A stretch of DNA of 64,000 nt from Candidatus Heimdallarchaeum aukensis (GCA_021513695.1 CP084166.1:2464001-2528000); one strand, 5' to 3'; counted from the stretch's first letter, positions 8,885-41,922 are shown. A program made the numbers and translations. The notes: generated from the letters alone by a model not told the origin.

Positions 8885-9101
8885 GCCTATTTCTCTAATT
8901 TTTTTACATCTAAATAGTTATAGGATTTGGTTTCGCTTTTTCTATTTTTTTGTATAACTCTTTTGTAATATCCTCTCTCCACTTAAAAAAAGTAAAACTA
9001 TCATCAGCATTTTTGATTTGATTTTACAATATCTTTTATGTATTCATAAGAAAAAATGTTACAAACAATTAATCTTTTAAATAAGTATTAGTTTAAATTT
9101 T

Positions 9102-19086: not shown

Positions 19087-19676
19087 ATGAAAAAAATTCA
19101 GTTTTTTTTGTTTTGTTGATAGTTTTGTCTGCTTTTACAGCACGACAAGTTTTTTCATCTACTGATGAAAATGAAACAGATGTTCAAGAATATTTCTTTG
19201 ATTTAACCTTAATTTTTGTTGAAGATACTACTTTTGAGGATTATGCTCCATATATACAAAAATATCTCAAAGAGATAGGTATTAATGTATCAATTCTTCC
19301 TCAGAATTATTGGGATTTTTATTTTTCTGTTGTTTATGATCGCGATTTTGAGATTGCTTTAGCTGGTTATTCTAACTCTCCTGATGCATATCTCGATGAT
19401 TTGTTAATTGAAGATTCTAACAGTAACTATTGTTCATTTAATAGTTCAATTCCTTATTATAATGAAACAAATGATTATATTGAAAAAATTAAGACTACAG
19501 TCGATCCTGATACTAAGCTAACTTATTATTACAAATTACAAGAATTAGTAATGGACAAGGTTTTACCAGTTATTCCTCTCTTTACTTCAAATGAGTATAC
19601 TATTGCTTGGTCAAACTTGAAAGGTTACGATATGTCTTGGGGATTAGTAAACAGTTTACATTACATGGTTTTGTAA
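19087..19676 (+). CDS. secreted protein homologous to only the C-terminal lobe of SBP_bac_5 (peptide/nickel-type) solute-binding proteins; the 5' end is frameshifted in a T8 homopolymer
   Basis: - The ATG at 19087 gives MKKIQFFLFC and then a stop.
- One extra T in the T-run at 19102-19109 would give MKKIQFFFVLLIVLSAFTARQVFSS, a canonical signal peptide, joined to the body IGINVS...FEIALAGYSNSPDAYLDDLL...YYKLQELVMDKVLPVIPLF.
- The ORF track instead starts at TTG 19113. Confidence 0.5.
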
Positions 19677-24355: not shown

Positions 24356-24901
24356 TTGATGAAAAAAGCAGTATATTTAACTAAGTTTGTATTTATAGTT
24401 TTAATTCTATCTTATTCAGCAATAATCACCTTTTCAGAAAATACAAATGAAAATGATTATTTCTTTTCTATAAACTTACTATCTCCTAATCCTTCTTGCT
24501 GTCCTAATGAATATGCCTACCAAATGGAAGAAGAATTACCAAAAATTGGTATTAATATTAGTCACCATGAATCAACCGGTTGGGGTAATATTATGCCCAG
24601 AACATGGGGTTATCCCGTTGGTGAAGAAGGTAAGTTTGATTATATACCCACCTATGAAGAAGGAGGATACGATATCCTCTTTGTAGGTTGGTGTTGGAAA
24701 CTAGATTGGGATCCAACAGGACTGTTTGATTCACCAAGTATAGTGCCGAACGGAGATAATGTATACCAATATAACAATCCTGAATTTGATACAAAGCTTG
24801 TTGAGTATACGACTGAACTAAATGATGAAGAACGTATTGAAAAAGCAAAAGAATTACAAGCTATTATTTATGAAGACCTGCCAGCTATAACCATGACTTA
24901 A
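24356..24901 (+). CDS. signal peptide plus C-terminal-lobe segment of an SBP_bac_5 solute-binding protein, truncated at an inversion junction
   Basis: - Signal peptide MMKKAVYLTKFVFIVLILSYSAIITFSE.
- IGINIS...DILFVGWCWKLDWDPTGLF...YNNPEFDTKLVE...KAKELQAIIYEDLPAI corresponds to the C-lobe and C-terminus of the family.
- It ends at LPAITMT*, about 30 aa short of the paralog at 19087..19676. Confidence 0.5.
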   Translation: MMKKAVYLTKFVFIVLILSYSAIITFSENTNENDYFFSINLLSPNPSCCPNEYAYQMEEELPKIGINISHHESTGWGNIMPRTWGYPVGEEGKFDYIPTYEEGGYDILFVGWCWKLDWDPTGLFDSPSIVPNGDNVYQYNNPEFDTKLVEYTTELNDEERIEKAKELQAIIYEDLPAITMT

Positions 24902-25417
24902 TGCACTTAAGGCGAAGCCATAAGGTTTTTTGAATTTAAATTCTACTGTATCATTATCTATCGCCTTAATTGAATCGTTATTTTCGAACAAGCTTGTTAG
25001 TTCTTTGTAAAATGGTGTGTTTAGCGCTTTTGTCATAAACAGTTCATACGTATAATCTACATCATAAGCTGTTACTTTATCCCCATTAGAGAAATAGGCG
25101 TTGGGATTAATATCTACTCTAATTACTTTCTTATCTTCGCTAATGGTGTAATTTTTAGCTATAACTGGTTCCATCAGATGAGTTTCCTGAGAACGTTCAA
25201 AAAGTCCATAATAGACACAATTCATCCATAGTTTATCATAATATGATTCTTGTATAAAAATGCTGTATTCTGTTAACTCTGCGGGGATAGTCCAACTAAT
25301 ATTATCTCCACCTATTTTTTCCCAATTTTCTGAACGATGAGCACTGTTAATTAATAAAGTAGGATCAATACCTTTGACACTCTTATTGCACAGATAAATT
25401 TCTTCGAAGTAAAGCAT
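24854..25417 (-). pseudogene. inverted segment encoding the N-terminal lobe of an SBP_bac_5 protein (no signal peptide)
   Basis: Minus-strand translation ...YYGLFERSQETHLMEPVIAKNYTISEDKKVIRVDINPNAYFSNGDKVTAYDVDYTYELF...TVEFKFKKPYGFA matches the SBP_bac_5 N-lobe, including the DG.x.TA.DV.ys.e motif. It lies between two plus-strand SBP_bac_5 pieces. Confidence 0.5.
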
Positions 25418-25516: not shown

Positions 25517-26128
25517 ATGCTAAATGTTTCTGAGTTTAATACAAGTAAAAGTATAGTAACACTCAGACCAAATCCATATTGGTCTATTACAGAAAAAAAA
25601 CCAGTAAACAAACTAATATTCCAGTACATAAGTGGTAAAGATACAGCAATTAGTGCTTTAGCAAATGGTACAATAGATATAGTTGATTCAAGTTATTGCA
25701 CAAAAGAAACAGATTTTGAAAATGTAGAAGTGAATATCCTAATAGCTAAAAGTATGAATACAGAAGAAATGGCTATAAATATGAAACACCCAATAATAGG
25801 AACAGGAGAACTTACACCTCTAGGAACGGCAGAAGCAGCAAAAAAAATACGCCAAGCGATAAGTCATGCAGTACCAAGAGAAACACTAGTAGAAAAAATA
25901 TTTTATGGAACAGCTATCCCAGGAGTGACTCCAATGCCAGAAGGATGTATAGGTTTTGATTCGTCATTAGAACCCTTTACTTATGACATATATCTAGCTA
26001 TTCAACTAATTGAGGAAGCAGGATTTACAAGAAATATTACAACAGACACAACAGGAAATGCTACATTAATAGTAGTAACATTGATTTCTATTTGTTATGC
26101 TGTAATCTTAAAAAGGAAAAAGAAATAA
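25517..26128 (+). CDS. middle segment of an SBP_bac_5 protein with C-terminal TM anchor
   Basis: - TLRPNPYW...LIFQYISGKDTAISALANGTIDIV...AISHAVPRETLVEKIFYGTAIPG matches the central part of the family.
- The frame is actually open from 25358, and SBP homology starts near 25430 with KKLVSQYIEENGYKL.
- It ends in the TM anchor GNATLIVVTLISICYAVILKRKKK.
- It has no signal peptide and no C-lobe. Confidence 0.5.
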   Translation: MLNVSEFNTSKSIVTLRPNPYWSITEKKPVNKLIFQYISGKDTAISALANGTIDIVDSSYCTKETDFENVEVNILIAKSMNTEEMAINMKHPIIGTGELTPLGTAEAAKKIRQAISHAVPRETLVEKIFYGTAIPGVTPMPEGCIGFDSSLEPFTYDIYLAIQLIEEAGFTRNITTDTTGNATLIVVTLISICYAVILKRKKK

Positions 26129-27247: not shown

Positions 27248-27376
27248 TCATCTTTTATTTTTAGCTGCTGCACGTTGAGCTCTGGATTTAAAAGCTTGGT
27301 TTTTTCCTGTCTTATCTGCATGGCTTTGTATTCGTCTCGCAGCTTTACTGGTCATAGGTTTTGTTTTCTTTGTCAT
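27248..27376 (-). CDS. small basic protein (43 aa), hand-called
   Basis: Hand translation gives MTKKTKPMTSKAARRIQSHADKTGKNQAFKSRAQRAAAKNKR, and it overlaps a probably spurious plus-strand ORF at 27206..27406. There is no database support, so it could equally be noise. Confidence 0.25.
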   Translation of the reverse strand: MTKKTKPMTSKAARRIQSHADKTGKNQAFKSRAQRAAAKNKR

Positions 27377-27462: not shown

Positions 27463-28110
27463 TTAATTTGCAATTGTAAAGTATTTAGCAGCGAATCTGC
27501 CTGCATTTGTTAATTTAATAATATTATTTCTTCCTTCTTTTTTATTTTCAATGAGATTCTCTTTTTCAAGTTTATTTATATAATAACTTACAAGTTGAGG
27601 TCTTATATTCAGAACATCACTGATCTCTGAATTAGCTGAACAAATTTTTCCTCCTCTTTCAAGTATGAGTGTAAGTATTTTTTTGGCATTATCTTTTATG
27701 TCATCTAATTGGACTTTTGGAATGGGAAGCTTAATTATTCTATCACTTAATGGATCATTATTTTTTGGTTCTTTAATATAATAAATCTCTGAACCAGAAA
27801 AAAATCCTGCTATTACACCAGCTGATGACATGATTTTTGTACCTCCTGTAATGTTTATGTGGATTCTATTACCAATGTTCTTCTTGATAATACTAAGAAT
27901 TTTAACTACAACATCTTCTAAATCAAATTTATCAACTTCAACTAATGTACAATTAATAAATAGTTTTTCAGTTAGTGCTCTAATTGAATTAGCCTCTGTT
28001 TTTGATCCTTCATTGTAAAGAAGAAATATATCATCAATTTGATATGCATTTATTCCTTCAATTATTGGTTTTGGTGTCAATCCAACTGTCATAATATGTA
28101 CATTTCGCAT
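27463..28110 (-). CDS. Csa3-like transcriptional regulator: CARF (CRISPR-associated Rossmann fold) sensor domain plus C-terminal winged HTH
   Basis: N-terminal MTVGLTPKPIIEGI...HINITGGTKIMSSAGVIAG carries the CARF D/N-x-T-G-G-T-K signature. The C-terminal wHTH is SEISDVLNIRPQLVSYYINKLEKENLIE. It is divergent from the viperin gene. Confidence 0.7.
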   Translation of the reverse strand: MRNVHIMTVGLTPKPIIEGINAYQIDDIFLLYNEGSKTEANSIRALTEKLFINCTLVEVDKFDLEDVVVKILSIIKKNIGNRIHINITGGTKIMSSAGVIAGFFSGSEIYYIKEPKNNDPLSDRIIKLPIPKVQLDDIKDNAKKILTLILERGGKICSANSEISDVLNIRPQLVSYYINKLEKENLIENKKEGRNNIIKLTNAGRFAAKYFTIAN

Positions 28111-28119
28111 GATTTAGAT

Positions 28120-28216
28120 AATGAAAAAATATTTAAAAATATATGGTTGTATAATACAAAATTTTTTTTAATTATAAAAATAAAATTTTTAATATTGGGT
28201 TATTATAACATTATCT
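28120..28216. promoter_or_regulatory. divergent AT-rich promoter region between the CARF-wHTH regulator and viperin; TATA-like box aattataaaaataaaa about 40 bp upstream of the viperin ATG
   Basis: Sequence only. TTTAWA-type elements sit about 25-45 bp upstream of both divergent starts. No experimental support. Confidence 0.25.
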
Positions 28217-29095
28217 ATGAATTCCGGATTAATCGATAGGGAAACAATAAGAATGCAATCTCGTAAGTTAGTAAGTGTTAACTGGCATCTGTGGCCAAGA
28301 TGCATGAATAATTGTTCTTTTTGTTTTGGAAGATTTAATGAGATTAAAACGACCTTAAATAGAGAAAATGCGCTAAGAATTTTAAGAATCCTAGTAGATA
28401 GTGGAACTGAAAAAATTTCTTTTACAGGAGGAGAACCATTATTATGCCCTCATTTGGGAGAGTTGATAAAAGAAAGTCATAATTTAGGCTTAACAACAAT
28501 GTTGATAACAAGTGGTACAATTCTAAATACAAAATTTATTGAAGAACATCATAGGTATTTAGATTGGATCGCCTTGAGTGTTGATAGTTCAAATGAGCAT
28601 ATCCAAAAACAATTAGGAAGAGGAAACGGAAATCATGTTCACAAGATTAAAAAATTATCAAAAGATATACATTCCTATAATATCAATTTAAAAATTAATA
28701 CAGTAGTAACAAAACTTAACTGGAATGAGGACATGACTGAATTTATAGAAGAAATTGCCCCTGTTAGATGGAAAGTTTTTCAAGTCCTAAAGATTGTGGG
28801 ACAAAATGATGGTACAATAGATCAGTTGCTTATTTCTGAAGAAGAATTCAATGTTTTCGTTAAAACCCACAATCATCTGAAACCAGTAGTAGAATCTAAT
28901 AAAGATATGAAAGGCTCTTATATAATGTTAGATGCATTAGGTAGATTCTTTCAAAATTCTAATGGTTACTTACAATATAGTCAATCTATATTGGAAATTG
29001 ATCCAATAAAGGCTATTATACAGGTGGGTTGGGATTATAACAAATTTATAAAAAGAGGTGGATTATACAATTGGAATATAAAAGGGGGAGGTTAA
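28217..29095 (+). CDS. prokaryotic viperin (pVip), radical-SAM antiviral nucleotide-modifying enzyme
   Basis: - Radical-SAM motif CMNNCSFCFG, CxxxCxxC.
- Strong identity to the viperin core: SVNWHLWPRCMNNCSFCFGRF...ISFTGGEPLL, KINTVVTKLNWNEDMTEFIEEIAPVRWKVFQVLKI (compare NPVRWKVFQCL in human viperin), and C-terminal FIKRGGLYNW. Confidence 0.9.
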   Translation: MNSGLIDRETIRMQSRKLVSVNWHLWPRCMNNCSFCFGRFNEIKTTLNRENALRILRILVDSGTEKISFTGGEPLLCPHLGELIKESHNLGLTTMLITSGTILNTKFIEEHHRYLDWIALSVDSSNEHIQKQLGRGNGNHVHKIKKLSKDIHSYNINLKINTVVTKLNWNEDMTEFIEEIAPVRWKVFQVLKIVGQNDGTIDQLLISEEEFNVFVKTHNHLKPVVESNKDMKGSYIMLDALGRFFQNSNGYLQYSQSILEIDPIKAIIQVGWDYNKFIKRGGLYNWNIKGGG

Positions 29096-29101
29096 ATATC
29101 T

Positions 29102-31888
29102 ATGTCAGTTCTTTATTATGAAAACCTGGAGGAAAAATTACCCGAAAAAGTAGTAGAATCAATTATGTGGTCTACTTTGCACGGTATTAAACCTTATTTA
29201 GAGTTTATTGATAGAATTGTCCGTTCTGCTATTGAAGAAAGAATTAGTATAGAAATAGAAAAGTATGATATAACTGAATTAATTTTAGAAGAGACAGAAA
29301 TTAACAAAAATATAGATAAAATTAATGAAGAAGTTATTGCGGATTATAAAGTATTACTGAAAGAAAAGAGATTAAGTAGGCAATTAAGAAAAGTTATTAA
29401 ATTAGTTGAAAAAGGTGTTGGTGTCTTATATCGCTTTGTTGAACCAAATAATGATATGGAATTGGAAAATTATGACCTAATCAAAGAACGTTTTTTGGAT
29501 GCTGATAAAGTTTTTCCACACAGAAAACTTGAATATCAGCATACTATTCGTGTTTTAGATACTTATCCTCCTCTTGATTTACTTGTGTTAAAAAAGAAGG
29601 ATATTAAAAAAAGCAAGCAGAAAATGAGAATATACCAAAGAGCAAATCTTTATCAGTATGGTGTAATAAAAGAATCGCTGGAACAACTATTAAACAGACC
29701 TTTAAAGCACAATAGAAATTTAATAAGATTATTTGAAAATGTCAAACATGTCCGTTTTGGTGATGTAATTCCTCACAAAATAAAAGAAGATGAGTGGTTA
29801 TTTCTTACGGATAAAAATCGTGTAGGAAGCCAAGATCAAAGAAAATTTGTTCAAATTGCCTTGGGGACGCCTGATCTGGCAATATTAGAAGGGCCTCCAG
29901 GTTCAGGAAAAACTACAACTATTTGTGAATTAATTTATCAAGGATTAAGACGTGGTTTAAAAATTCTATTGGTTGCATCAACTCATGTGGCTGTAGATAA
30001 TGTTTTAGAAAAATTAATGGATGAAAATTCTCCTATCTATGATGAAATAAAAAAAGTAGTCTTACCTGTTCGAATTGGAAAAACAGATAGAATATCTGAT
30101 CTAGCTACCATGTATCAAGTAGACACCTACTGGGAATCTGAAAAGGAGAAATTAAAAGATAAATTGCGTAAATTAAAAAATAAAACAGAATCTCAAAAAA
30201 TGCTGTTAGATCTATTAGATGATAAGGAAAAAGGCACATCTGATTATATGAAAAGAGTTTTCATAAAAGCTGCTAATTTAGTATGTGGAACAACAATAGG
30301 TATTCTTCGACATCCTGAAATAGAAAAAAGAAAAAAAGATAGAAAAATTACATCTACGAAACCTTATGACCTTCTTATTTTAGATGAAGCTAGTAAAACA
30401 ACCTTTCAAGAGTTTATTGTACCTGCTTTGTTAGCTAAGAAATATATTATAGTTGGGGATATTAGACAATTACCTCCTTATGTTGATGAGGATGGTATAA
30501 TTAGTAATATCCCCTCGATAACAGATTTAGAAAGCAAATTTGCTACATTGATTCATAATCTTAAAGAAGCTCAGAAGCGCAATTTATTCCCTGTTAAATG
30601 TATATTACAAATAAGTAATGACCTAAAAGATAATGATTTAGAAATAATTGAAAAGTTTACGATTAATAATGTACCATTTTATTATCTAAAAAAAGAGAAG
30701 AAAGTAGACTTATACAAACTTATGGGTTCCTCTTTGTTAATAGGAACGAAAGAAAATTTACAAAAACAAGAATCTCTGTTACCTTTAGGAATAAATTGTG
30801 TGTGCGAAGGAAACTCCTCTGCATTAGTTCCATTAAATGAATCTAAGACATTTGTAGATTTTACAATTTGGAAGAGAAAACATAATGCGATTTCATCTTT
30901 GAGGCAACCAATAAACTTACGATTTTACAATGATGAATCTTTAACTGAAGCAATAGGCTGGCGCTTAATAAGGGATTTTGAATTAAGATATGTTGATAAT
31001 GATAGATATTGGAAACAAATAGAAACATTTATCCCAGAGTACTGGGATGAAAAAAGAAAGAGAGATTTTATTAACAGACTATTTCAAATAAAGAGGTTAG
31101 CTTTTCCATCGATAATTGAATTATTGCAAAAAGGTTTCCAAAGAAGCAAAAAACAAAAAGAATTAGATATCGGTTTGATTATAACTGATGGATTACCTAA
31201 AAAAATATTACAAGAACGCCATGTTATATTAAAATATCAACAAAGGATGCATCCTGAGATATCTGCATTTCCTAGAAACAATTTTTATAATAATGAAGCA
31301 CTCCGTGATCTGCCTGAAATTGAGAAAAACAGAGTTTTTGAATATCCAAATTATAAAAATAGAACAATCTGGGTAGATGTTCGGTTAAACAAAGAAGAAC
31401 AAAAAGAAATGAAAAAAAATATGAATAGAAATAAAAAAGAGGCTAAAGTAATTATTGATGAGCTAAAAGATTTACTTGATTGGATGTCTAAAAATAGGAA
31501 ACGTGATGGAAAACCATGGATTATAGCTATTCTTCCGTTTTATAAAGGTCAAGAAAAACTAATTAGAAAAAAACTTCAATCTTATTTTAAAAGTAAACGA
31601 GTAAGAACATTTTATTGTATAGAAAAAAATGCAATAGTTGAGCTTTGTGCTGTTGATAGGTTCCAAGGGCATGAAGCTGATATTATTTTTCTATCTTTTG
31701 TAAGGAATCGTAGCACTGGTATTGGTTTTTTGGATACTCCAAATAGACTTAATGTTGCGCTAACAAGAGCTAAATATCAGTTGGTGATAGTAGGAGACAA
31801 ACAATACTTCGAAAAATTTCAAAAGAGATCAGAAATCTTGCAAAAACTTGCAGAAGAAACACCTCTAAAAGCAAAGTATAGGATCTGA
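29102..31888 (+). CDS. UPF1-like SF1 helicase (AAA_11/AAA_12, COG1112 type) with a 250-aa N-terminal region of unknown function; Mokosh MkoA-like
   Basis: Walker A ILEGPPGSGKTTTICELIYQG. Motif LLVASTHVAVDNVLEKL. Walker B LLILDEASKT. The C-terminal AAA_12 signature is VDRFQGHEADIIFLSFVRN...LNVALTRAKYQLVIVGD. Its start is 6 nt after the viperin stop. Confidence 0.8.
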   Translation: MSVLYYENLEEKLPEKVVESIMWSTLHGIKPYLEFIDRIVRSAIEERISIEIEKYDITELILEETEINKNIDKINEEVIADYKVLLKEKRLSRQLRKVIKLVEKGVGVLYRFVEPNNDMELENYDLIKERFLDADKVFPHRKLEYQHTIRVLDTYPPLDLLVLKKKDIKKSKQKMRIYQRANLYQYGVIKESLEQLLNRPLKHNRNLIRLFENVKHVRFGDVIPHKIKEDEWLFLTDKNRVGSQDQRKFVQIALGTPDLAILEGPPGSGKTTTICELIYQGLRRGLKILLVASTHVAVDNVLEKLMDENSPIYDEIKKVVLPVRIGKTDRISDLATMYQVDTYWESEKEKLKDKLRKLKNKTESQKMLLDLLDDKEKGTSDYMKRVFIKAANLVCGTTIGILRHPEIEKRKKDRKITSTKPYDLLILDEASKTTFQEFIVPALLAKKYIIVGDIRQLPPYVDEDGIISNIPSITDLESKFATLIHNLKEAQKRNLFPVKCILQISNDLKDNDLEIIEKFTINNVPFYYLKKEKKVDLYKLMGSSLLIGTKENLQKQESLLPLGINCVCEGNSSALVPLNESKTFVDFTIWKRKHNAISSLRQPINLRFYNDESLTEAIGWRLIRDFELRYVDNDRYWKQIETFIPEYWDEKRKRDFINRLFQIKRLAFPSIIELLQKGFQRSKKQKELDIGLIITDGLPKKILQERHVILKYQQRMHPEISAFPRNNFYNNEALRDLPEIEKNRVFEYPNYKNRTIWVDVRLNKEEQKEMKKNMNRNKKEAKVIIDELKDLLDWMSKNRKRDGKPWIIAILPFYKGQEKLIRKKLQSYFKSKRVRTFYCIEKNAIVELCAVDRFQGHEADIIFLSFVRNRSTGIGFLDTPNRLNVALTRAKYQLVIVGDKQYFEKFQKRSEILQKLAEETPLKAKYRI

Positions 31889-31892
31889 AATT

Positions 31893-32993
31893 ATGAAAAT
31901 ACTATTAAGAAAAAAAATATCTATAGAATCGTATTGTGTGCAAATGAGCGTTTTTGTTAGCGAAGAACGACCAGAAATAATCCCACTATTAAAAGGAGTG
32001 GAAGAAGCTGAGAAAAAAAGTGTTGAAACTGCAACTTATTTTGAAGAAAAACTTTTTCCCGGATTTTCTATGAAATTTGTTGAAAATATACTGGAAGAGT
32101 TACGTCTACTAGGATTAGTTGATAATGGACATAAATTAACACAGAAAGGAATAGAAACAATAGAAGAAGAAGATGTTACTGTACCAGATGAAGGAACTTT
32201 TGAAATACACGTTGTTAATGATGTTCTAATACCACAAGTTATTATTGATATCAAACCCCTTGAACCAAATTTATCAAGTGAACTAGCCATAAAAAGAAAG
32301 CAAGGTAAACAATCAAAATTAGAGTTACCTGAATTAATCTTAAAAACAAAGGGAAGCACATTTAACATTTTTGACGACAAAAGGCGTAAAGTTACAATTC
32401 ACGAAATACAAAAAGTAGGTTTAAAAAATAAAAATAATGAAAAATTAGACGTTGAATTAGCATTTGACGAAAAAAAATGGACACTCAAAGTTACTTTTAA
32501 TAAAGAAAAGTTTGATCTGCACTTACCACAATGGTTTAATCAAACTGATGTTGTTGATAAAGTACTTACGTTATTCTCAGCAAAGGCTGATTTAAAACAA
32601 TGGAGGTTACCGCAAGATCCGACTAAGCTAGAAAAAAAAGAAATTACTAGTTTTAATAAAAATTTCCAAAAAGATAATGTAAAACTTTCTTCATTAGGCA
32701 AATTTAACATAGTTAGACTAATTGGCGTTCCCATTTTTCCGGATAGTCAAAAAAGTGCAGAAAAATGGTCAAAGAAATTATTTATTGAAAAAAAACTTTC
32801 TAATTATATGACAACAAAAGATTTTGAGACTGAATGGCGACAAATGATCAAAGAATATAGTGGAAAGTTTGATAAGTTTGACCTACCACCTCCAAAAATT
32901 ATGGATTTGTTAGATGAGATAACTTATGCTTCACAAAAATATTGGTTTCTGCAAGCACCATTAGATATGAATATTGAGGAGTTTGTCATATGA
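31893..32993 (+). CDS. hypothetical protein (366 aa), possible N-terminal winged-helix; operonic between the helicase and the PLD nuclease
   Basis: The start is 4 nt after the helicase stop, and the stop overlaps the PLD start (ATGA). ILEELRLLGLVDNGHKLTQKG is wH-like. Confidence 0.45.
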   Translation: MKILLRKKISIESYCVQMSVFVSEERPEIIPLLKGVEEAEKKSVETATYFEEKLFPGFSMKFVENILEELRLLGLVDNGHKLTQKGIETIEEEDVTVPDEGTFEIHVVNDVLIPQVIIDIKPLEPNLSSELAIKRKQGKQSKLELPELILKTKGSTFNIFDDKRRKVTIHEIQKVGLKNKNNEKLDVELAFDEKKWTLKVTFNKEKFDLHLPQWFNQTDVVDKVLTLFSAKADLKQWRLPQDPTKLEKKEITSFNKNFQKDNVKLSSLGKFNIVRLIGVPIFPDSQKSAEKWSKKLFIEKKLSNYMTTKDFETEWRQMIKEYSGKFDKFDLPPPKIMDLLDEITYASQKYWFLQAPLDMNIEEFVI

Positions 32994-34522
32994 TTAAACA
33001 AAAAGAACAGACTAACACTTATTTAAATGATAAAGAAGTTCCATCGCATTGGAGAAGTTTAATAAAAGAACAACCTGTTTTTAAAGATACCAACAAAATT
33101 ATTCCAATAGATAAAAAAAATAATCGATTTCGTACTCTTTTATTGAACTCTATAAAAAACGCAAAACAAACGATTATGATGTGTTCTTTTATTCTTAGTG
33201 ATCCTGATATTATTGATTCGTTATTAAAAGCTTCAGAAAGGGGGGTTAGGTGTTATCTATTATTTTCTACAGAAGCTCAATTGTCAAAGGAATATAAAAA
33301 AGAACAATCAGAGTTTGATGAAAAGACCCTAGAAGAACATAAGCAGATGTTAGATAGACTTGCTGGAAAAATTTTAGCTAGAACGTGTGATCATTTACAT
33401 GCTAAATTTTTGTTAGTCGATTATGGCAATCCAGAACAGAAGGGTTTCATTTCAACTGCGAATTTTACAAAAGAAGCGCTTACAAGAAATCAGGAACTAG
33501 GTGTAATTCTTAGTGATTCTGAAATAAATTTTCTATTTAATTTCTTTGTATTAGGTTTTTGGGTCGAAAGTAAAAATGAACTAGTAAGAAAAAATAATTG
33601 GGACGCTGTTAAATTAATTAATCTTAAACCACTAAAAGGAAATAATCAAATTTTTTATACTACTAGTTCCAACCAAACCCTAAAAAACGAATTAGAAAAA
33701 ATAATCGAGAATGAAACAAAAGAATTAGTGGTCTCAAGTTATGGGTTTGATGATGAACATCCTATTGTAGAGTTACTAATAAATAAAGCACAAAATATTA
33801 ACTTGACCATAATTACAAGACCAAGAGAAAAAAATCATAAAGTCATAGAAAAATTTACAAATGCTGGAGCAAAGGTTGTTGCTTATGATTATCTACATGC
33901 AAAGTTTATTCTTTCGCCTTCAACAAATCAAGGAATAATTATGACTGCAAATTTAGAGAGTAAAGGTCTAGAAACTGGTTATGAGGTTGGTATTAAAATT
34001 ACAAGAAAATATTTTGATGAACTGTTAACAATCTCAAGAGTCTGGATCGATTCTGCACCATTAATTTGGTATAATAAGACTTCTATTAAAAATTTGGAAC
34101 CTGGTACAATCAAAATTCCTAAAGGGAAGGATTATGATACCATAGAAATTATTGATGAGTTTATAGATGAGCAAAAGATAGAGCCACAAGATTTGCATAA
34201 AATGGAGAAGTTATTAAAAGAAGAACCTAAATTAAAGAAAAATCTGGATAACAAACTTCCAAAAAAGATTATTGTTAAGAGAACAATTATTCCTCCAGTA
34301 CTTCCAAAGGATGCAGTAAAAGTAGAGTCTAAGCAACTATTTACTAGTAAGAAAAGTAGAAGAAGAGAAGCTGACGTAAAAGATAAGGAAATAAAGTTTC
34401 CCTTTGAAACTTATCGTTTAAAGAATATATATTATGTTGTTGTTAAGTCATTAAAAGATTTAGAAAAACTTAAGGAATTCCCTAAATTTAGACAAACTGT
34501 ACGTATTGTAACTAAAGGCTAA
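32990..34522 (+). CDS. phospholipase-D-family nuclease with two HKD motifs; Mokosh MkoB-like
   Basis: HKD motif 1 is DHLHAKFLLVDYGNPEQKGFISTANFT. HKD motif 2 is YLHAKFILSPSTNQGIIMTANLESKG. Confidence 0.75.
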   Translation: MIKQKEQTNTYLNDKEVPSHWRSLIKEQPVFKDTNKIIPIDKKNNRFRTLLLNSIKNAKQTIMMCSFILSDPDIIDSLLKASERGVRCYLLFSTEAQLSKEYKKEQSEFDEKTLEEHKQMLDRLAGKILARTCDHLHAKFLLVDYGNPEQKGFISTANFTKEALTRNQELGVILSDSEINFLFNFFVLGFWVESKNELVRKNNWDAVKLINLKPLKGNNQIFYTTSSNQTLKNELEKIIENETKELVVSSYGFDDEHPIVELLINKAQNINLTIITRPREKNHKVIEKFTNAGAKVVAYDYLHAKFILSPSTNQGIIMTANLESKGLETGYEVGIKITRKYFDELLTISRVWIDSAPLIWYNKTSIKNLEPGTIKIPKGKDYDTIEIIDEFIDEQKIEPQDLHKMEKLLKEEPKLKKNLDNKLPKKIIVKRTIIPPVLPKDAVKVESKQLFTSKKSRRREADVKDKEIKFPFETYRLKNIYYVVVKSLKDLEKLKEFPKFRQTVRIVTKG

Positions 34523-34568
34523 AACTGCAACTCAATAGATTTATAAATTGTAAAATGGAGCTAAAAAA

Positions 34569-35108
34569 GTGTCATACGATTTACTATATATTTCATTAAT
34601 GGGCTCATCAGAAAAAGCTGTAGCAAATTCAATATATGCTTCTTTAAAGAATTTAGTTAAAACTGATAAGAAAAATTGGGTTCTGGTGTTTGCAAAATCT
34701 AAATCAACACCAATAAATGGAGAAAGAATTGTTGAAATATTAGATGAGTATAAAAACACTTATACTAAAGCTAAATGGTACAACGCTCCTGTTGATTTTG
34801 ATGAGTTTGAAATTGAAGAATCCAACCTTCTTAAATCAATGGAACAGATAATAAATTATGTGGAAGAAACAGAAAAGAACTACTCTGACATCTTTATAGA
34901 TATAACACCAGGTAGAAAAGTAATGTCTGTTGCAGCCACTCTAGCCGCAATAAATCTCTGTAAATCATCAGAGTTCAATGATATCAAAATAATATACTAT
35001 TTGTTGAAAAATGTTGATGAACATAAAGATAAAGACGCACCTGAACTATATCCTGATGAGTACAAAGTGTCGAGTTGGTCTGTTAAAGATATAAGTAAAA
35101 GAATTTAG
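34569..35108 (+). CDS. standalone CARF-domain protein (179 aa)
   Basis: Core IFIDITPGRKVMSVAATLAAI is parallel to the Csa3-like HINITGGTKIMSSAGVIAG (the D/N-I-T-x-G-x-K signature). The N-terminal beta strand is LLYISLMGSS. There is no fused effector. Confidence 0.5.
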   Translation: MSYDLLYISLMGSSEKAVANSIYASLKNLVKTDKKNWVLVFAKSKSTPINGERIVEILDEYKNTYTKAKWYNAPVDFDEFEIEESNLLKSMEQIINYVEETEKNYSDIFIDITPGRKVMSVAATLAAINLCKSSEFNDIKIIYYLLKNVDEHKDKDAPELYPDEYKVSSWSVKDISKRI

Positions 35109-35118
35109 AGGAAAAAGA

Positions 35119-36219
35119 ATGTCTGAAAAGCCAGTAATTTTGGAGTTTAGTGAGTTTTTTGAGAGTTATTTGTCAGAAAAACCTTTCATTATTCGAGGTT
35201 GGGATGAAGATGAGAATCAAGAATTTAGAATTGAATATAATGAAGGTATTACAACATTTGATAAAAATTTAAAACCCTTAGATATAAAGAATTATCTCTT
35301 TAATATTGGTATCTTCCCTTCTGATGAAAAATGGTGGAGAGAAAAAGCATTTAAAAAATTGGAAAAACGATATAATGAAGCAATTGAAGAAGAAGAGGTT
35401 CCTGCTCTGGGTTTAGATACAAATATAATAATAAATGGCGTTTTTATCAACAGGTTAAGAGGATTATTAAAAAGGAAACTTAAATGGGAAAATCCTCTCC
35501 TTCTACTGTCTCTTGCTTCATCTCACGAGCTTCACTATGGAGCAGAATCAAAATATAATGACTCGTTTTATAACAAATCAAAATTGGACAATATATGGGA
35601 ATTTATTTTATCACTAGATTCTCAAACACAGGAACTAGCTAAGACTGTTTTTGGCACCTATAAACCTATAGAAAACAAAAACATTTTGAGTTCTTTACAT
35701 TGTAAAAGAGGAAGAATAGGGCTTATAGGTTCATATAACTATTATAAACATAAGAAACTACCAAATACTCTCATCATAAAATCGATTCATCCTTATAATG
35801 TTGCAAAGTTTGATTCAGATGGGCATAAATATAAAGGAATTGATGCAATTTACGACACTTTAATTGCTTATGAGTTCACTCAGTTTATGACCTTTACAAA
35901 TACAAAAGTAACGATTTTAACAATGGATAATTCTTTAGCAAGTTTATTACAAAATGCATCAGTGGATGTAGTTTATATACCACCTCCAAGTAAATTTCAA
36001 TTACCAAAAGAAATAATTATCCCTCAAAGAAATTGTTCTATCCTTCTGAGAGAACTATTAGTAAGATCTCCTTTTATCGTTATTGAGGATGAAAATAAAA
36101 AAATAGTATTATCAATGATTTGGATAGGACAAACAGATGAAGAAAAAGCAAAAGGAGTAATTCATGGAGTAGTGAAAGAAAAAAATAAAACTAGATATTT
36201 ATTAATAAAGAGCCAATAA
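35119..36219 (+). CDS. hypothetical protein with a possible PIN-like nuclease core
   Basis: ALGLDTNIIING is a PIN first-strand h-h-D-T-N-h-h motif. SSHELHY gives the downstream acidic residue and ILTMDNSLASLL the last (T-x-D). The spacing is longer than in a canonical PIN domain. Confidence 0.35.
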   Translation: MSEKPVILEFSEFFESYLSEKPFIIRGWDEDENQEFRIEYNEGITTFDKNLKPLDIKNYLFNIGIFPSDEKWWREKAFKKLEKRYNEAIEEEEVPALGLDTNIIINGVFINRLRGLLKRKLKWENPLLLLSLASSHELHYGAESKYNDSFYNKSKLDNIWEFILSLDSQTQELAKTVFGTYKPIENKNILSSLHCKRGRIGLIGSYNYYKHKKLPNTLIIKSIHPYNVAKFDSDGHKYKGIDAIYDTLIAYEFTQFMTFTNTKVTILTMDNSLASLLQNASVDVVYIPPPSKFQLPKEIIIPQRNCSILLRELLVRSPFIVIEDENKKIVLSMIWIGQTDEEKAKGVIHGVVKEKNKTRYLLIKSQ

Positions 36220-36305: not shown

Positions 36306-37127
36306 GTGAAAAACACTTTTACTGTTATGGAAAATTGCTCTCTTTCTTCTAAAGATATGATTAAATTATACCTAGAAGTTGAAAAGGTTGCACGGTTTTA
36401 TGGAAAAATAAGACTTGTAGTCAATGATAAATTAAAGGCTGATCTTAAGGGAGAAGAGAAGACGAATTGTGGGCAGTTTCCTGCAAATAGTAAAAAGTTC
36501 CAAAAGTATTGGGGACTATTTAAAGAATTAAATATGAATACAAAGAAAATAAACAAATCCTATAAAACAATTAGTATTCCTAAAGAAGAATATAATAATT
36601 TAAAGAATAACAATAATAAATTAAAATATCAACGTTTTAATGTTCTTCGAGACTATTTTGCAATAAAAAGAATTCAAACTCTTCCACCAGAAAAAAAAGA
36701 ACAAATAATAATTACACTAGGATATAGAGATATCTTGCCACCAAACGTAGAAATGAAAACTTCAAATGAAAACCTAATCAAAATAATTGAAAATACAGAA
36801 GATTATTTAATTTATTTTAATTTGGAATCAGAGTTTGCGTTTCGTATGATATTTAGACATTTTTTGTGTTCGTTTTTGTTTAATGAACTTAACCTTTTTC
36901 CTGATAAAGAGATTCATATTTTAAAAAGAAATAGTTTGAAAAGCAAAAATAAGAATAATAAAGCTATTTCTAATCGTCTAATTATTTATAAGAGTGACAA
37001 GAAAAACTTTGAACTTATTTCAGAAACTACTTATCAAAACTTATTGAAACTTGTGGATGATACACAACTACACCAAAAACTTATGAAAATTCATTTAGAT
37101 TTTGAAAGAAATAAAGAAGGAATATAG
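36306..37127 (+). CDS. hypothetical protein (273 aa)
   Basis: ORF with protein-like composition and no recognisable motif. Confidence 0.4.
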   Translation: MKNTFTVMENCSLSSKDMIKLYLEVEKVARFYGKIRLVVNDKLKADLKGEEKTNCGQFPANSKKFQKYWGLFKELNMNTKKINKSYKTISIPKEEYNNLKNNNNKLKYQRFNVLRDYFAIKRIQTLPPEKKEQIIITLGYRDILPPNVEMKTSNENLIKIIENTEDYLIYFNLESEFAFRMIFRHFLCSFLFNELNLFPDKEIHILKRNSLKSKNKNNKAISNRLIIYKSDKKNFELISETTYQNLLKLVDDTQLHQKLMKIHLDFERNKEGI

Positions 37128-37172: not shown

Positions 37173-37949
37173 TTAATAATCATTAATGCAAATATCTTTG
37201 ATTTTAAAATTCTCTTTGCCTTCTTTAATTGGATACAAAAACCACCAACGCTTTGACAGCTCTTTTTCAGATATATTCTCTATGAGATTCGAAATAAAGT
37301 AAGAAAATGACAAGTTCTCTATTTTGTAGATAGAATACACATCATTAAGTTTGTCTTGCATTTCTCTTTCTAGCCATAATTTAATAAATAGATTTTCACC
37401 CATGCAAATATGATTTACAAACCCTTGACTATTTTTTAATGCTGCAATAATGTGTCCTTGAATTAATCCTTCATTTAAACTATTAGATCCACTATAAGCG
37501 AAAATTCCATTAAACTTGCTTTTTCCAATTATTTTTCCATTAAAAGACGCATTATCCATAATTTCTTTAATGTTGCTATTGTTTACTTTTGTTTTGACTT
37601 CAATGATACCTTTAACATTATCTGGTGTTGTAATTACAAAATCTCCTTCTACAAATAACGCTGGATATGTATTATCGTATAGAATTATATCTATTTGTTT
37701 TGATATTTCAGTTCCGAAATTCTCACAATTATGTTTATAATTAATTATGAATCCTGTTCCTATGCTTATGTTAGAAGGCAAAAAACGTTTAATAACATTT
37801 TTTAATATAGCTTCCTTAAATCTTCCTTCTTCTCCCCAGTGTCTATTTCCTATAAGATTTCTTACTCTATTTTGAACAATTTTCAACTCTCTTGTAATAG
37901 AACTATGAAATTCTTTAGGGTTTATATCCCATCTATTCCTCTGATTCAT
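37173..37949 (-). CDS. hypothetical protein with a putative PD-(D/E)xK (restriction-endonuclease-fold) core
   Basis: QIDIILYDNTYPALFVEGDFVITTPDNVKGIIEVKTK follows the hhhD...hhE-h-K pattern. It lies downstream, on the same strand, of the helicase operon, but is separated from it by an IS6 insertion. Confidence 0.4.
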   Translation of the reverse strand: MNQRNRWDINPKEFHSSITRELKIVQNRVRNLIGNRHWGEEGRFKEAILKNVIKRFLPSNISIGTGFIINYKHNCENFGTEISKQIDIILYDNTYPALFVEGDFVITTPDNVKGIIEVKTKVNNSNIKEIMDNASFNGKIIGKSKFNGIFAYSGSNSLNEGLIQGHIIAALKNSQGFVNHICMGENLFIKLWLEREMQDKLNDVYSIYKIENLSFSYFISNLIENISEKELSKRWWFLYPIKEGKENFKIKDICINDY

Positions 37950-38346: not shown

Positions 38347-39109
38347 GGTAGTGTCTAGTTTTTTTCCGACAAAAATATTTGTGGGGACTCTAATAGTAAG
38401 ATATGAAAACACAAAAACTATCTGCTCTTTTTAAGAGATGCAGAGTCCCCAAAAAAATAATAATAAAAGCTATTTATGAATATATTGGTTCAAAGAATGG
38501 TTTGAGGACAGTAGCATGGAAGAATGGTTTAACGCATCAAACATTATTGTATTGGGTAAAGAAGTTCAGGCTCTTTAGGGAAAGTTTACATAGAGTTGTA
38601 GCAGAGAGAGGGGGAATACCAGAGATTATAGTAGTAGATGAAACAGAGATTAGGACCTCTCAAGGCTCAATATATCTGTGGTTCGCGTTAGATCCTTACA
38701 ACAAGACTTTACTGGGTTTTAGTATTACTAAAGGACGGAGTAATCTTGAATGTTTACTAACTTTCCGTTATTGGCTCAAATGTTGGGGTTTTAAGCCTCG
38801 TATTGTCGTTACAGATGCAGGGGTATGGTATCCTGTCTTACTTCGTCTAGGTATCAAAATCTCCGTTATCAAAGGTGGTTTACGCTCCTATATTGAACGT
38901 TTTAATGCTACTCTTAAGAGTTATCGTTGGTTTCATTCTATTCTCCACTGCACTTGTCCTATCCGTGCCGTCTATGGCTCTACTCATCTTTCTGGTTTTC
39001 TTACTCTCTTTATGCTCCATTATAATTTCGTTCGTCCTCATCAGAGCTTGGGACATCCTCCCCTTAGTTCCTTTTTACCTAGGAGGTGGTATAAAAACTA
39101 GACACTACC
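38347..39109 (+). mobile_element. IS6-family insertion sequence (763 bp), copy 1, with 17-bp terminal inverted repeats and a 9-bp direct repeat
   Basis: Inverted repeats GGTAGTGTCTAGTTTTT at 38347 and AAAAACTAGACACTACC ending at 39109. It is flanked on both sides by ATATAAAGC, which looks like a target-site duplication. Confidence 0.85.
38403..39101 (+). CDS. IS6-family DDE transposase (232 aa)
   Basis: DDE triad in IIVVDETEI, RIVVTDAGVWYP and YIERFNATLK. Overall similarity to IS26-type transposases. Confidence 0.85.
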   Translation: MKTQKLSALFKRCRVPKKIIIKAIYEYIGSKNGLRTVAWKNGLTHQTLLYWVKKFRLFRESLHRVVAERGGIPEIIVVDETEIRTSQGSIYLWFALDPYNKTLLGFSITKGRSNLECLLTFRYWLKCWGFKPRIVVTDAGVWYPVLLRLGIKISVIKGGLRSYIERFNATLKSYRWFHSILHCTCPIRAVYGSTHLSGFLTLFMLHYNFVRPHQSLGHPPLSSFLPRRWYKN

Positions 39110-39408: not shown

Positions 39409-41922
39409 TTATTTATCTCTATTTATGAAATTCATTAAAACCTTTAAGCAAGAATATTCTTCTAATTTACCAATATAAACATTCTTGAATTCACCATTGA
39501 TTTTTTCTCTTAAAATTAAATGTTTCTGTTTATTTATTATCAGGCGCCCACCAGTTGGTTTAAATTTTCTAAAAATAAACCACAAACTTTGAGCTTCTGG
39601 AAAAGTAATTTTTTCTGCTAATTCTTTTGGTTTGTTCAATAATAATTTTCCATTTGATTTAAAACTCAGAGTAATTATTGCTTTAGTATCTCCTAGGTAA
39701 AAATCTCCAATCTCTAGTTTTTGCAAATCTTCTTCTTCAATTTCCTCTTTTTTCTTATATTCCTTTTCTAGCGGCTTTTCTGATATAAACTCTCCAAATT
39801 CTGACCACAAACGATATTCAATATTGCTTTCACCAATCACCTCATTCCAATTTAATTTATAGAATATTTTTTCATCTGTTGTGTTTTTTACATAAATATT
39901 GAACAATGTTGTGTGAGTTTTTCCTTTTGCTTTTCGGAGTATTCTTCCCAAGGATTGAATTCTTTGTATTTTTGAAGACGATGATGCCATTATAATTCCT
40001 ATATTTGTTGAAGGGATATCTACTCCTTCAATTAGTGCCTTAGCTGATAATAGAACTCTGGTTATTCCTCTTCTATACAAAGTTAAACCAATCCTATTAA
40101 GTGATGAAGGAAATCCTGAATGATAAATGCTTACATAGGGAGAATCTAATTCAACAAAAACTCTATTTATCTCCCCTATAAGTTCATGAAATAAAATAAC
40201 TCTATCGTTTCTTGAAATTGTATATAAAGGACTAGTTTCATCGCTATATTCTTGAATATTTTTTGAAATCACTCTATTTAATATTTTTAATGTGAGTTTT
40301 TTTCTATTTTCTGACTGATATACTAAGTCCTTCCTTTCCTTTATTTTTTTGAAGTATTGGTTAATAAGTGGATCTTTTTTTTCTTTACTCATTTTCTGTA
40401 GAACGGGATAAATATTTATCATGTCAAGTGATAGTTGAGGATATTTGTAATTTAATGCATCAATAATTTTACTTATTTCTTTAGTTAAATTTTCATATTT
40501 TCTTTTTTCATGATTTGTAAGGACTACTCCATAGTTGTAAATATTGTATTTTGGTATTATTCCATCATCAAATGCATTTTTGTAAGTATAATTTCCTATT
40601 ATTTCTCCTAATTCTCGAATAATAACTTCATTAAAAGCATCATCCGATTCTCTTTCTGGTGTAGCTGATAGTCCTAAAGTGTAAGATCTCTTAGCTTTAT
40701 ATATCTCACGAAACTTCGGGGCGCCAGATTTGTGACACTCATCTACAATTAAAAGATTTGCTTGTAATTTTTCTGTAACTTTTCCTATTAGATTGTTTTC
40801 TATTGCAGAATTAATGACAAAAATGAAAATTTCTTTTTGATCAAAACTGTCTGAATAATCACCACCTTTTAATGCAATTTTTGACGGTTCAACGTGTAGT
40901 TTTTCTATAAGATTATCATACCATTGTTCTAGAAGTACTATTGTTGGGACAACTATAGTAACTGTCAAATTTGGTTCAATTTTCTTCATTTCTTGAATAA
41001 TTGCCATGGCTAAGTGTGTTTTCCCAGCTCCAGTAACTACTTTAGCAATACCTCTTTTCTGTTTCATCCATCGTTCAAGGAATTTTGATTGCCATGAATA
41101 AAGAGAATCTTGCAATTGCCATTCTAGTCCTTTAGTTTTTTTTATCTCTTTTTTCATGTCAATAATTGGGTTTTTCATGAATTCATCAAAATCGTTTTGA
41201 TGTTTAAGTATTTGATATCTCCACTTTCGATTAGGGAGATGGGCTTTAATTGTTAAGTGATATAGTTTTCTCAATTCTCTTATTGGTACATCTCTTCTAT
41301 TTAGTTTCTGTAATCGAGTAAGTAATTCTTTACTTAAATTGTGGGCGTAGGATAAAATTTCTTTTCTATCTCTCTCTCCTAAACTAATAGTTCCTTGATA
41401 GTAGTGGATCACTCCACATAAATCTAATACTTTCAAAATTTCTGACAAATATCTTCTGATTGTGTCTACATTCTCAATTTCATAATCATTTGCTTTAAGT
41501 AAGGTAATAAACTTAGAAAGTTTCAATCCTGAATTGTTTTTGCAAACGATATCATAAACATCTGGTAAAAAGTAAGCCCATTCTAAATTTCGACAAAGGC
41601 ATTTTAAAATATAGTTTTTATATTTAATTTTTCCGTCTAAATATTGGACAGAAAGATCAGAGAGAAAATAAAATTCATCTAAATATAGCATTTTATATGT
41701 AACTAAGCTGCCCAAATATCTTTTTGCCGTAGTGACTTTTATCTTTCCTTCTAATGTGTTACATAGTAGTAGCTTTGCTTCTTCTTCTGTAACTTTTTTA
41801 TCACGCAATTGCTTTAGAAAATTCTTCATTTTTTCTTCTGACTCAAGAATTGGATAAATTAGAGTCATATGGGGAACTTTCTTTTTTGTATCAATCAAAC
41901 CATCTGTCATAATTATCATCAA
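39409..41922 (-). CDS. SF2 DExH-box helicase (ResIII/DEAD-like core) with a 290-aa N-terminal unknown domain and a C-terminal repeat module shared with the two upstream genes
   Basis: Motif I VVTGAGKTHLAMAII, motif II LLIVDECHKSG, motif III LGLSATPER and motif VI QRIQSLGRILR. The C-terminus GDFYLGDTKAIITLSF...TGGRLIINKQKHLILREKINGEFKNVYIGKL is repeat-like. Confidence 0.8.
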   Translation of the reverse strand: MMIIMTDGLIDTKKKVPHMTLIYPILESEEKMKNFLKQLRDKKVTEEEAKLLLCNTLEGKIKVTTAKRYLGSLVTYKMLYLDEFYFLSDLSVQYLDGKIKYKNYILKCLCRNLEWAYFLPDVYDIVCKNNSGLKLSKFITLLKANDYEIENVDTIRRYLSEILKVLDLCGVIHYYQGTISLGERDRKEILSYAHNLSKELLTRLQKLNRRDVPIRELRKLYHLTIKAHLPNRKWRYQILKHQNDFDEFMKNPIIDMKKEIKKTKGLEWQLQDSLYSWQSKFLERWMKQKRGIAKVVTGAGKTHLAMAIIQEMKKIEPNLTVTIVVPTIVLLEQWYDNLIEKLHVEPSKIALKGGDYSDSFDQKEIFIFVINSAIENNLIGKVTEKLQANLLIVDECHKSGAPKFREIYKAKRSYTLGLSATPERESDDAFNEVIIRELGEIIGNYTYKNAFDDGIIPKYNIYNYGVVLTNHEKRKYENLTKEISKIIDALNYKYPQLSLDMINIYPVLQKMSKEKKDPLINQYFKKIKERKDLVYQSENRKKLTLKILNRVISKNIQEYSDETSPLYTISRNDRVILFHELIGEINRVFVELDSPYVSIYHSGFPSSLNRIGLTLYRRGITRVLLSAKALIEGVDIPSTNIGIIMASSSSKIQRIQSLGRILRKAKGKTHTTLFNIYVKNTTDEKIFYKLNWNEVIGESNIEYRLWSEFGEFISEKPLEKEYKKKEEIEEEDLQKLEIGDFYLGDTKAIITLSFKSNGKLLLNKPKELAEKITFPEAQSLWFIFRKFKPTGGRLIINKQKHLILREKINGEFKNVYIGKLEEYSCLKVLMNFINRDK

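Follow-up and report, generated by a model that had tools for sequence, protein, structure and literature searches.

An Asgard archaeal viperin heads a conserved operon with a UPF1-like helicase, a new protein family, a PLD nuclease and CARF proteins that looks like a composite defence system

In a 64-kb stretch of the genome of Candidatus Heimdallarchaeum aukensis (GCA_021513695.1, CP084166.1:2464001-2528000; hereafter the window, with positions counted from its first nucleotide), we found that a prokaryotic viperin (pVip) is the first of six closely spaced genes, which together with a divergently transcribed regulator gene form a cluster (27463-36219) that, judged from sequence comparison, looks like one composite defence system rather than a chance neighbourhood. 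The operon encodes pVip, a UPF1-like helicase of superfamily 1 (SF1), a protein named X here, a nuclease of the PLD family with two HKD motifs, a small stand-alone CARF protein and a PIN-like protein named Y here, and the regulator combines a CARF domain with a winged helix-turn-helix (wHTH) domain. The cluster is a new composite of recognisable modules and one new protein family, and no published description of the combination came to light in full-text searches that paired viperin with Mokosh, helicase, PLD, CARF or UPF1-like, as the first-pass annotation of this DNA had supposed. We consider it slightly more probable than not that the genes make up a co-regulated, multi-effector antiviral operon of modules that are able to act singly.

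All seven genes were recovered by an open reading frame (ORF) scan at exactly the coordinates and spacing given in the first-pass annotation. The Csa3-like CARF and winged-helix transcription regulator (215 aa, 27463..28110) is on the minus strand and is separated by a divergent control region of 106 bp (28111..28216) from the plus-strand genes, which are pVip (292 aa, 28217..29095), the helicase (928 aa, 29102..31888), X (366 aa, 31893..32993), the PLD nuclease (510 aa, 32990..34522), the small CARF protein (179 aa, 34569..35108) and Y (366 aa, 35119..36219). From pVip to Y the successive genes are spaced by 6 nt, 4 nt, a 4-nt overlap, 46 nt and 10 nt; none of these gaps holds a T-run of six or more, and Shine-Dalgarno-like GGAGG/GAGG motifs precede the internal start codons. 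Because of this spacing, the Shine-Dalgarno-like motifs and the gaps free of T-runs, the layout would fit a single transcript from pVip through Y. A run of five T lies 3' of Y inside the 86-nt gap that separates it from the next gene, Z (273 aa, 36306..37127, plus strand). Z has no family match in Pfam, PADLOC or NCBIfam and was present only in the same-species contigs L001-L003 (related loci carry numbers of this form), and it was rejected as a member and is probably outside the system.

For the leading gene of the operon, published experiments on the identical protein demonstrate the function. The pVip of the window is AsgVip01, with 100% identity across 292/292 residues (Shomar et al. supplementary tables, bioRxiv 10.1101/2023.09.13.557418); it matches NCBIfam viperin_w_prok (NF038283) with 286 bits against a cut-off of 180 and PADLOC pVip with 1.5e-85, and carries the radical-SAM motifs CxxxCxxC (C29/C33/C36) and GGE (71-73). 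AsgVip01, a radical-SAM synthase of 3'-deoxy-3',4'-didehydro (ddh) nucleotides, accepts CTP, UTP and GTP, yields several ddh-nucleotides including a guanosine derivative, and alone protects E. coli against phage T7 (Shomar et al., bioRxiv 10.1101/2023.09.13.557418). In the published tests the protein stood as a single gene, whereas in the window it opens a conserved operon of six genes. The viperin neighbours discussed by Shomar et al. are nucleotide kinases only, with helicase, nuclease and CARF unmentioned; here there is no such kinase, and a CARF regulator is found instead.

The helicase matches AAA_11/AAA_12 in Pfam and two MkoA models in PADLOC (5.4e-89 and 3e-66), the MkoA match covering part of the region upstream of the helicase core, and its nearest solved relatives in the PDB are UPF1 (1e-31), IGHMBP2, DNA2 and Sen1. 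Its catalytic motifs are intact (Walker A GPPGSGK270TT, Walker B D428-E429, motifs III, V and VI) and a helical insertion follows Walker A; the N-terminal 239 aa had no match in the PDB, and the region of about residues 1-240 is unassigned. A match to a 'PLuB system' model of NCBIfam was rejected as a name for the helicase (141 bits against a cut-off of 999; no literature was found under that name). The PLD protein matches PLDc_2 twice in Pfam, and in PADLOC DrmC (3e-27) and MkoB (2.8e-9), and it has a conserved C-terminal extension. Both of its HKD sites (H137/K139/D144/N158 and H303/K305/N321/E332) are invariant in 22 homologues. Its closest solved relative is FAM83B (PLD-like domain), followed by the nucleases Nuc, vaccinia nicking-joining enzyme, MitoPLD/Zucchini and NucT; PLD family members that resemble Zucchini and Nuc cleave single-stranded nucleic acid. 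No relatives of the PLD protein were found in viral contigs. Thus, the identities first proposed for the viperin, the UPF1-type helicase, the two-HKD PLD protein and the CARF-wHTH protein (below) are all supported by Pfam, NCBIfam or PADLOC.

Between helicase and PLD lies X, which in sequence is the same as a hypothetical protein from Candidatus Heimdallarchaeum aukensis and has no match in Pfam, NCBIfam or PADLOC. A word-indexed search returned X only, and an exhaustive HMMER search recovered its family (248 representatives at E≤1e-3, 73 at E≤1e-10); X is a new protein family. The AlphaFold model of X is confident and predicts a β-hairpin at the N-terminus, a winged helix, domains rich in β-structure and, at the C-terminus, a helical domain that closes with a KYWFLQAPxD motif, of which the winged-helix domain is the sole part resembling solved structures. 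Further, we predict that X is an adaptor linking helicase and PLD nuclease.

The linkage of these genes was followed in contigs carrying PLD homologues, in one genome per species and in metagenome contigs, a sample biased to relatives of the PLD protein; loci were searched with profiles made from the orthologue groups of the window, and the PLD alignment was used for locus scans, the X alignments being too divergent. About 27 full-length PLD homologues had 31-52% identity. In about 20 distinct loci we found that pVip, helicase, X and PLD share one strand and keep this order, with a GC content of 27-58%, identities of X down to 24%, and spacings between pVip and helicase that range from 6-nt gaps down to overlaps. 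These loci come from metagenome-assembled genomes (MAGs) of at least four Asgard phyla (Heimdallarchaeota, Loki- or Promethearchaeota, Odinarchaeota and Thorarchaeota), from unnamed metagenome contigs, and from one MAG labelled Zixibacteria, so that the gene order is not peculiar to this contig. The CARF-wHTH gene adjoins pVip in 15 of the 16 pVip lineages with enough flank (mostly divergent, sometimes co-directional) and is present in 2 of 16 lineages without pVip. Moreover, a small CARF gene paired with a gene of about 350 aa adjoins the cluster in at least eight lineages, where the pair lies downstream, convergent or on the regulator side, and the genes beyond the cluster are unrelated from locus to locus. 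Since the linkage outlasts rearrangement across such wide divergence, it argues for a functional association and not for chance adjacency. The alternative, that a viperin, a Mokosh-like pair and orphan CRISPR ancillary genes are independent defence systems merely lying side by side, would draw on the dense island, rich in insertion sequences (IS), in which the cluster is found, and on the ability of pVip and of the helicase, X and PLD genes to exist apart from each other; with the combination kept in about 20 loci of several phyla, with unrelated flanks and with overlapping or nearly abutting frames, and with the regulator so unevenly divided between lineages with and without pVip, we regard it as very improbable.

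One of these loci, from the MAG labelled candidate division Zixibacteria (L009, P0017; GCA_035528535.1), carries all seven genes, has a GC content of 30% and is all but identical to the metagenome locus L023; its label may reflect a binning error or a transfer.

The helicase, X and PLD genes also occur as a unit of their own. Among the contexts inspected, distant X genes were always beside an AAA_11/AAA_12 helicase and, where the contig permitted, had a PLD gene on the other side, and among the 80 metagenome loci the triplet was present in every one whose contig spans all three genes. Two large triplet clades are without viperin and CARF genes, and the middle gene of a high-GC clade is X by profile comparison (94.9%, E 4e-8). 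In addition, a conjugative plasmid of the alphaproteobacterium Pontibrevibacter nitratireducens (L101, NZ_CP049815.1, 3217-9780) carries the triplet (helicase 3.6e-174, X 1.2e-65, PLD 1.8e-90) with an RtcR-like σ54 activator after the PLD gene. The same kind of activator follows PLD in L040 and in an IncF plasmid of Klebsiella pneumoniae (L102, CP052287.1, 6824-9804), which has PLD and regulator only, near IS21 and IS26, and looks like a remnant. In a neighbour-joining tree of the helicases, pVip-linked loci were distributed over at least five deep clades. We presume, as one proposition with the co-regulated operon and with the same slight lean in its favour, that helicase–X–PLD is an older, self-sufficient cassette that was later joined by viperin and CARF genes.

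Two exceptions to the common gene order were seen among the relatives. L026 has its pVip on the opposite strand, and L067-L069, which belong to an otherwise viperin-less clade, have a viperin-like radical-SAM gene about 250 nt downstream of PLD (in L068 it spans 8439-9461, encodes 340 aa and matches the pVip profile with 6e-63).

These arrangements bear on whether the arms of the operon are mechanistically coupled, such that ddh-nucleotides terminate nascent viral RNA or DNA, the helicase loads on the aborted strand and PLD degrades it, with X recognising the stalled complex or the ddh 3' end; alternatively, the same machinery would clear the host's own poisoned polymerases. Such coupling would agree with how very closely pVip and helicase adjoin and how deeply this is conserved, with the joining of pVip to the triplet in all those deep helicase clades, with the presence of the transcription-terminating translocase Sen1 and the RNA-surveillance helicase UPF1 among the relatives of the helicase, and with the single-strand cleavage known for PLDs of the Zucchini/Nuc type. 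We nevertheless think it unlikely, as AsgVip01 by itself protects E. coli, triplets lacking viperin are common, the opposite-strand pVip of L026 and the downstream gene of L067-L069 indicate that strict translational coupling is not required, and recognition of ddh ends is purely hypothetical. The description of the viperin as 'fused' to a Mokosh-like pair in the first-pass annotation is therefore kept as far as it means co-regulation and dropped as far as it means obligatory coupling, since AsgVip01 works alone. A co-regulated operon of independent arms is the most economical reading because pVip and the triplet each occur or work alone.

Contigs of strain variants of the same species carry a second helicase–unknown–PLD triplet (L001:12930-18313, L003:11645-14531) just downstream, at the position that a DUF6602 gene has in the window. 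It is composed of a helicase of 841 aa (about 25% identity to the first), a protein of 467 aa and a PLD protein of 539 aa (about 23% identity to the first). The 467-aa protein was considered as a further X and rejected, as it has no detectable homology to it. This suggests that helicase–unknown–PLD triplets are swappable cassettes.

Regarding control, the regulator has the Csa3 architecture, with an N-terminal CARF Rossmann domain and a C-terminal wHTH. It matches Pfam HFX_2341_N (64 bits, 1.7e-17), CARF_Card1 above cut-off and Csa3_N (30.5 bits, cut-off 27), PADLOC CARF3 over its full length (3e-55), MarR/HTH_24 at the C-terminus (wHTH residues 140-210), and NCBIfam cas_HTH slightly below the cut-off (55.1 bits against 60.2). 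A motif N-I-T-G-G-T-K92 is kept in the regulator family as N-x-T-G-G-T-K. The control region between regulator and pVip contains a perfect palindrome, TTGTATAATACAA, at 28147-28159, flanked by two A/T-rich TATA-like boxes read from the sequence, one for the regulator (28129-28140) and one for pVip (28186-28195). The TTGTATAATACAA palindrome is also found in the orthologous region of L004, six loci share a TTTAATAT box placed about 20-25 nt ahead of the pVip ATG, and other loci have repeats or palindromes of their own at the equivalent position. This arrangement is compatible with an operator lying between two archaeal promoters and with a pVip mRNA that has a short leader or none, both of which are predicted functions.

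The small CARF protein matches PADLOC CARF_m1 (3e-10) and, on the CARF part of the model, CARF_m1--CARF_PIN (7e-9). Its motif D-I-T-P-G-R116-K117 is invariant in 9/9 family members, and the R-K dyad aligns with R105/K106 of Sis0455, residues contacting and cleaving cyclic tetra-adenylate (cA4). Indeed, the cA4 ring nuclease Sis0455 was the top PDB match of both CARF proteins, and both retain the K (or R-K) and S/T residues touching cA4 in it. Control that responds to cyclic oligoadenylate (cOA) is plausible from these CARF residues, and the small CARF protein may also degrade its ligand, as a candidate ring nuclease. Y gave no direct family match in library scans, its PDB profile search was negative, and a word-indexed homology search returned Y only. 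It has an acidic tetrad of D100 (in D100-T-N), E137, D246 and D270 (in T268-x-D270), and four acidic residues in such a pattern are the classic PIN signature. A profile of Y matched that of an orthologue group, Y2, whose members (345-363 aa) lie beside the small CARF gene elsewhere, with 95.1% probability (E 3e-8), and one Y2 member matches PADLOC CARF_m1--CARF_PIN (9.7e-26), CARF_PIN (1.3e-14) and Pfam PIN_4 (1e-4). Because Y's orthologue and the small CARF protein match the same fusion model, the two proteins are probably a CARF_m1–PIN divided over two genes, with the small CARF as putative sensor half and Y as putative nuclease half, and the earlier naming of the last gene as PIN-like gains transitive support from the profile match and the tetrad.

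L004 (identical to L011, Heimdallarchaeota) is without the CARF and PIN pair. Directly upstream of its pVip lies a gene (L004:4770-5240) for a 156-aa NYN/Zc3h12a (Regnase-like) RNase, which may functionally replace the PIN-like RNase.

The source of a CARF ligand was sought in the window and in related loci. No CRISPR array and no Rfam match were present in the 64-kb window, no Cas10 or CD-NTase family was found among its 57 ORFs of at least 100 aa in family scans, and in the window and related loci neither cas genes nor a CRISPR array nor a cyclase adjoined the CARF genes, which agrees with the first-pass annotation, where no CRISPR or cyclase had been noted nearby. One explanation is that the CARF domains do not sense cyclic oligoadenylates made by Cas10 and that the system is autonomous and needs no cyclase. 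The absence of a cyclase from all inspected loci would follow from it, and the RtcR-like σ54 activators after bacterial triplets point to a rival ligand; the same idea has been proposed for the RtcR-like regulators found with CoCoNuTs (Bell et al., eLife 2024). The top NCBIfam match of these activators is RtcR (1e-30 to 9e-44, reaching the N-terminal region of RtcR), and at the site of the CARF motif N-I-T-G-G-T-K they have N-V-S-P-G-T-P. However, the RtcR matches lie far below the curated cut-off and Pfam assigns no CARF domain to the bacterial regulators, the archaeal CARF proteins resemble the cA4-binding Crn1, Card1 and Csa3 types and not RtcR, the small CARF protein keeps its R-K dyad, and published Candidatus Heimdallarchaeum genomes carry several CRISPR-Cas loci able to supply cOA. 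An autonomous, Cas10-free system is therefore a possibility that we hold to be doubtful.

Under the reading as a co-regulated operon of independent arms, the CARF-wHTH protein would bind the palindrome between the two promoters and a nucleotide ligand would switch the operon, the likeliest ligand being an oligoadenylate, cyclic or linear, that is produced elsewhere in the cell. Viperin would then turn CTP, UTP and GTP into chain-terminating ddh-nucleotides, as shown experimentally for the identical protein, and helicase, X and PLD, to judge by homology and gene order, would form a helicase-driven nuclease that tracks and cuts viral RNA or single-stranded nucleic acid. Helicase-nuclease action of this sort has been proposed for Mokosh and for CnuH–CnuE (Millman et al. 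2022; Bell et al., eLife 2024). The small CARF protein and Y would act as a split CARF–PIN RNase switched on or tuned by the same ligand, and the outcome would be inducible nucleotide poisoning and nucleic-acid degradation in one transcription unit. Several points weigh against this reading. Experimental support is confined to viperin among the operon members, and an oligoadenylate cyclase is absent from the window and from the ±10 kb flanks of the related loci inspected. The small CARF protein scores under every Pfam CARF cut-off, the lysine of the regulator motif is substituted in several orthologues and is thus not invariant, the PIN assignment of the window's Y is transitive, via its Y2 orthologues, and the single-sequence AlphaFold model of Y is unusable (pLDDT 35). 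Moreover, the association of the CARF-wHTH gene with pVip (Fisher p = 7e-6) was calculated in a way that ignores phylogenetic relatedness, and the helicase tree is a rough one built from distances.

Comparison with known systems placed the cluster near several of them. Mokosh type I consists of two genes, an MkoA helicase that bears a serine/threonine kinase domain and an MkoB PLD nuclease, and its defence requires the ATP site of the helicase and the PLD protein's active site (Millman et al. 2022). The cluster shares with it an adjacent COG1112/UPF1-like SF1 helicase and PLD nuclease, with both active sites intact. In contrast to Mokosh type I, the helicase is without a kinase domain (none in Pfam or NCBIfam) and at 928 aa is shorter than the MkoA models (1112-1607 positions), every locus with all three genes within the contig has X between helicase and PLD, the PLD protein scores 2.8e-9 with MkoB but 3e-27 with DrmC, and the cluster further includes viperin, two CARF proteins and a PIN-like protein. 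Strict membership in Mokosh type I was therefore rejected for want of the kinase domain and the two-gene layout, and of the 'Mokosh-like pair' named in the first-pass annotation the likeness in domains stands (MkoA 5.4e-89, and PLD), while assignment to type I in the strict sense does not.

In CoCoNuT type III-C, a UPF1-like CnuH is followed by CnuE, which combines a wHTH with two PLD domains; CnuH-family helicases typically precede wHTH-nuclease effectors, and type II CoCoNuTs are tied to CARF (RtcR-like) regulators (Bell et al., eLife 2024). Likened by description, the cluster recalls CnuH–CnuE in having a UPF1-like helicase that carries a helical insertion behind Walker A, then a winged-helix protein and two PLD domains, and the RtcR-like regulators of type II are paralleled in the bacterial relatives of the triplet. 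By this analogy, CnuH–CnuE appears to be the closer architectural counterpart, nearer than Mokosh type I. Unlike CoCoNuTs, the operon is without McrB/McrC (CnuB/CnuC) and Hsp70-like CnuD genes and no McrB/McrC family is found in the flanks, and unlike in CnuE, the wHTH (X) and PLD parts are separate genes and X carries large extra domains of no known fold. CoCoNuTs are nearly absent from archaea, and viperin is not reported with them. Strict CoCoNuT membership fails, as there is no McrBC-like core. The DISARM system (DrmA, DrmB with DUF1998, DrmC) has a similar layout of helicase, partner and PLD, and the top family matches of our PLD protein are DrmC models; however, DrmA is of SF2 (YprA-type) and DrmB has DUF1998, neither being homologous to the SF1 helicase or X, and there is no methyltransferase here. 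Among the ancillary CARF proteins of type III CRISPR systems (Csa3, CARF_m1–PIN and Crn1), the regulator shares the Csa3 architecture and the small CARF protein and Y, taken as a pair, would correspond to the CARF_m1–PIN effector, which is one fused protein there and two genes here; in this cluster they are wired to a viperin, helicase and PLD operon and detached from cas genes.

Viperin is among the few immune effectors common to prokaryotes and animals, and Asgard viperins have been argued to be ancestral to the eukaryotic ones. AsgVip01, which was used in that argument, sits in a conserved operon of previously unmentioned members, and these partners have eukaryotic counterparts in UPF1/MOV10-type helicases, Zucchini/MitoPLD-type nucleases and PIN/NYN RNases. 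If the operon is induced by a ligand through the CARF regulator, it would be a prokaryotic analogue of the interferon-induced expression of viperin, and it offers a defined case for how chain-terminating nucleotides may combine with nucleic-acid degradation. A bolder proposal, which we consider distinctly unlikely, is that Asgard viperin is natively the first enzyme of a signal-induced pathway in which helicase, adaptor and Zucchini-like PLD act on ddh-terminated nucleic acids, with a ligand generated by the system or by infection and not made by Cas10; if true, the operon would be a prokaryotic forerunner of an 'induced viperin plus RNA-surveillance nuclease' immunity, for which the Regnase/Zc3h12a-like RNase in the L004 operon may be compared. 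The helicase–X–PLD cassette itself is widespread, in archaea and on bacterial plasmids, and current defence finders would be expected to miss or mislabel it because X is absent from Pfam, NCBIfam and PADLOC.

The cluster, which varies between strains, lies in a dense, IS-rich defence island (27 to 64 kb of the window). Convergent with the operon is a gene for a DUF6602/PD-(D/E)xK protein (37173-37949, minus strand), which resembles CRISPR-associated PD-DExK and NucC nucleases (PADLOC 1e-23 and 1e-10); it was rejected as a member of the system, as other genes take its place in strain variants. On the regulator side, a very basic ORF of 42 aa (MTKKTKPMTSKAARRIQSHADKTGKNQAFKSRAQRAAAKNKR, 27248-27376, minus strand) lies between a transglutaminase-like gene and the CARF regulator, and the MTKKTKPMTSKAARRIQSHADKTGKNQAFKSRAQRAAAKNKR ORF was predicted as a gene in 3/3 same-species contigs. 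Two inverted IS6-like transposase genes (38403-39101, plus strand, and 46619-47317, minus strand) with 93-95% DNA identity enclose a ResIII helicase (39409-41922), a 273-aa gene, a NERD protein (42709-44403) and an HNH protein (44801-45994), and the bracketed region resembles a composite transposon with a candidate defence module. Further defence-type genes encode HEPN_Swt1 (47424-48245), HerA (48318-49919) and NurA (49929-51053), after which come a 248-aa gene and a 1224-aa AAA protein (51784-55458), a TGT-like protein (57283-58515), GmrSD_N (59123-61267), and a UvrD_C and PD-(D/E)xK protein (62500-63990) that is cut by the end of the window. Fragments of SBP_bac_5 solute-binding genes on both strands and truncated DDE_Tnp_1 transposase genes (19113-19676, 24854-25417 on the minus strand, 25517-26128, 20161-20685, and 56289-56813 on the minus strand) look like decayed genes at the island edge. 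Farther upstream, a 276-bp tandem repeat of 1.9 copies with 89% identity (8222-8743) was found in a surface-type GH113/CBM20 gene of 1288 aa (ORF 5018-8884).

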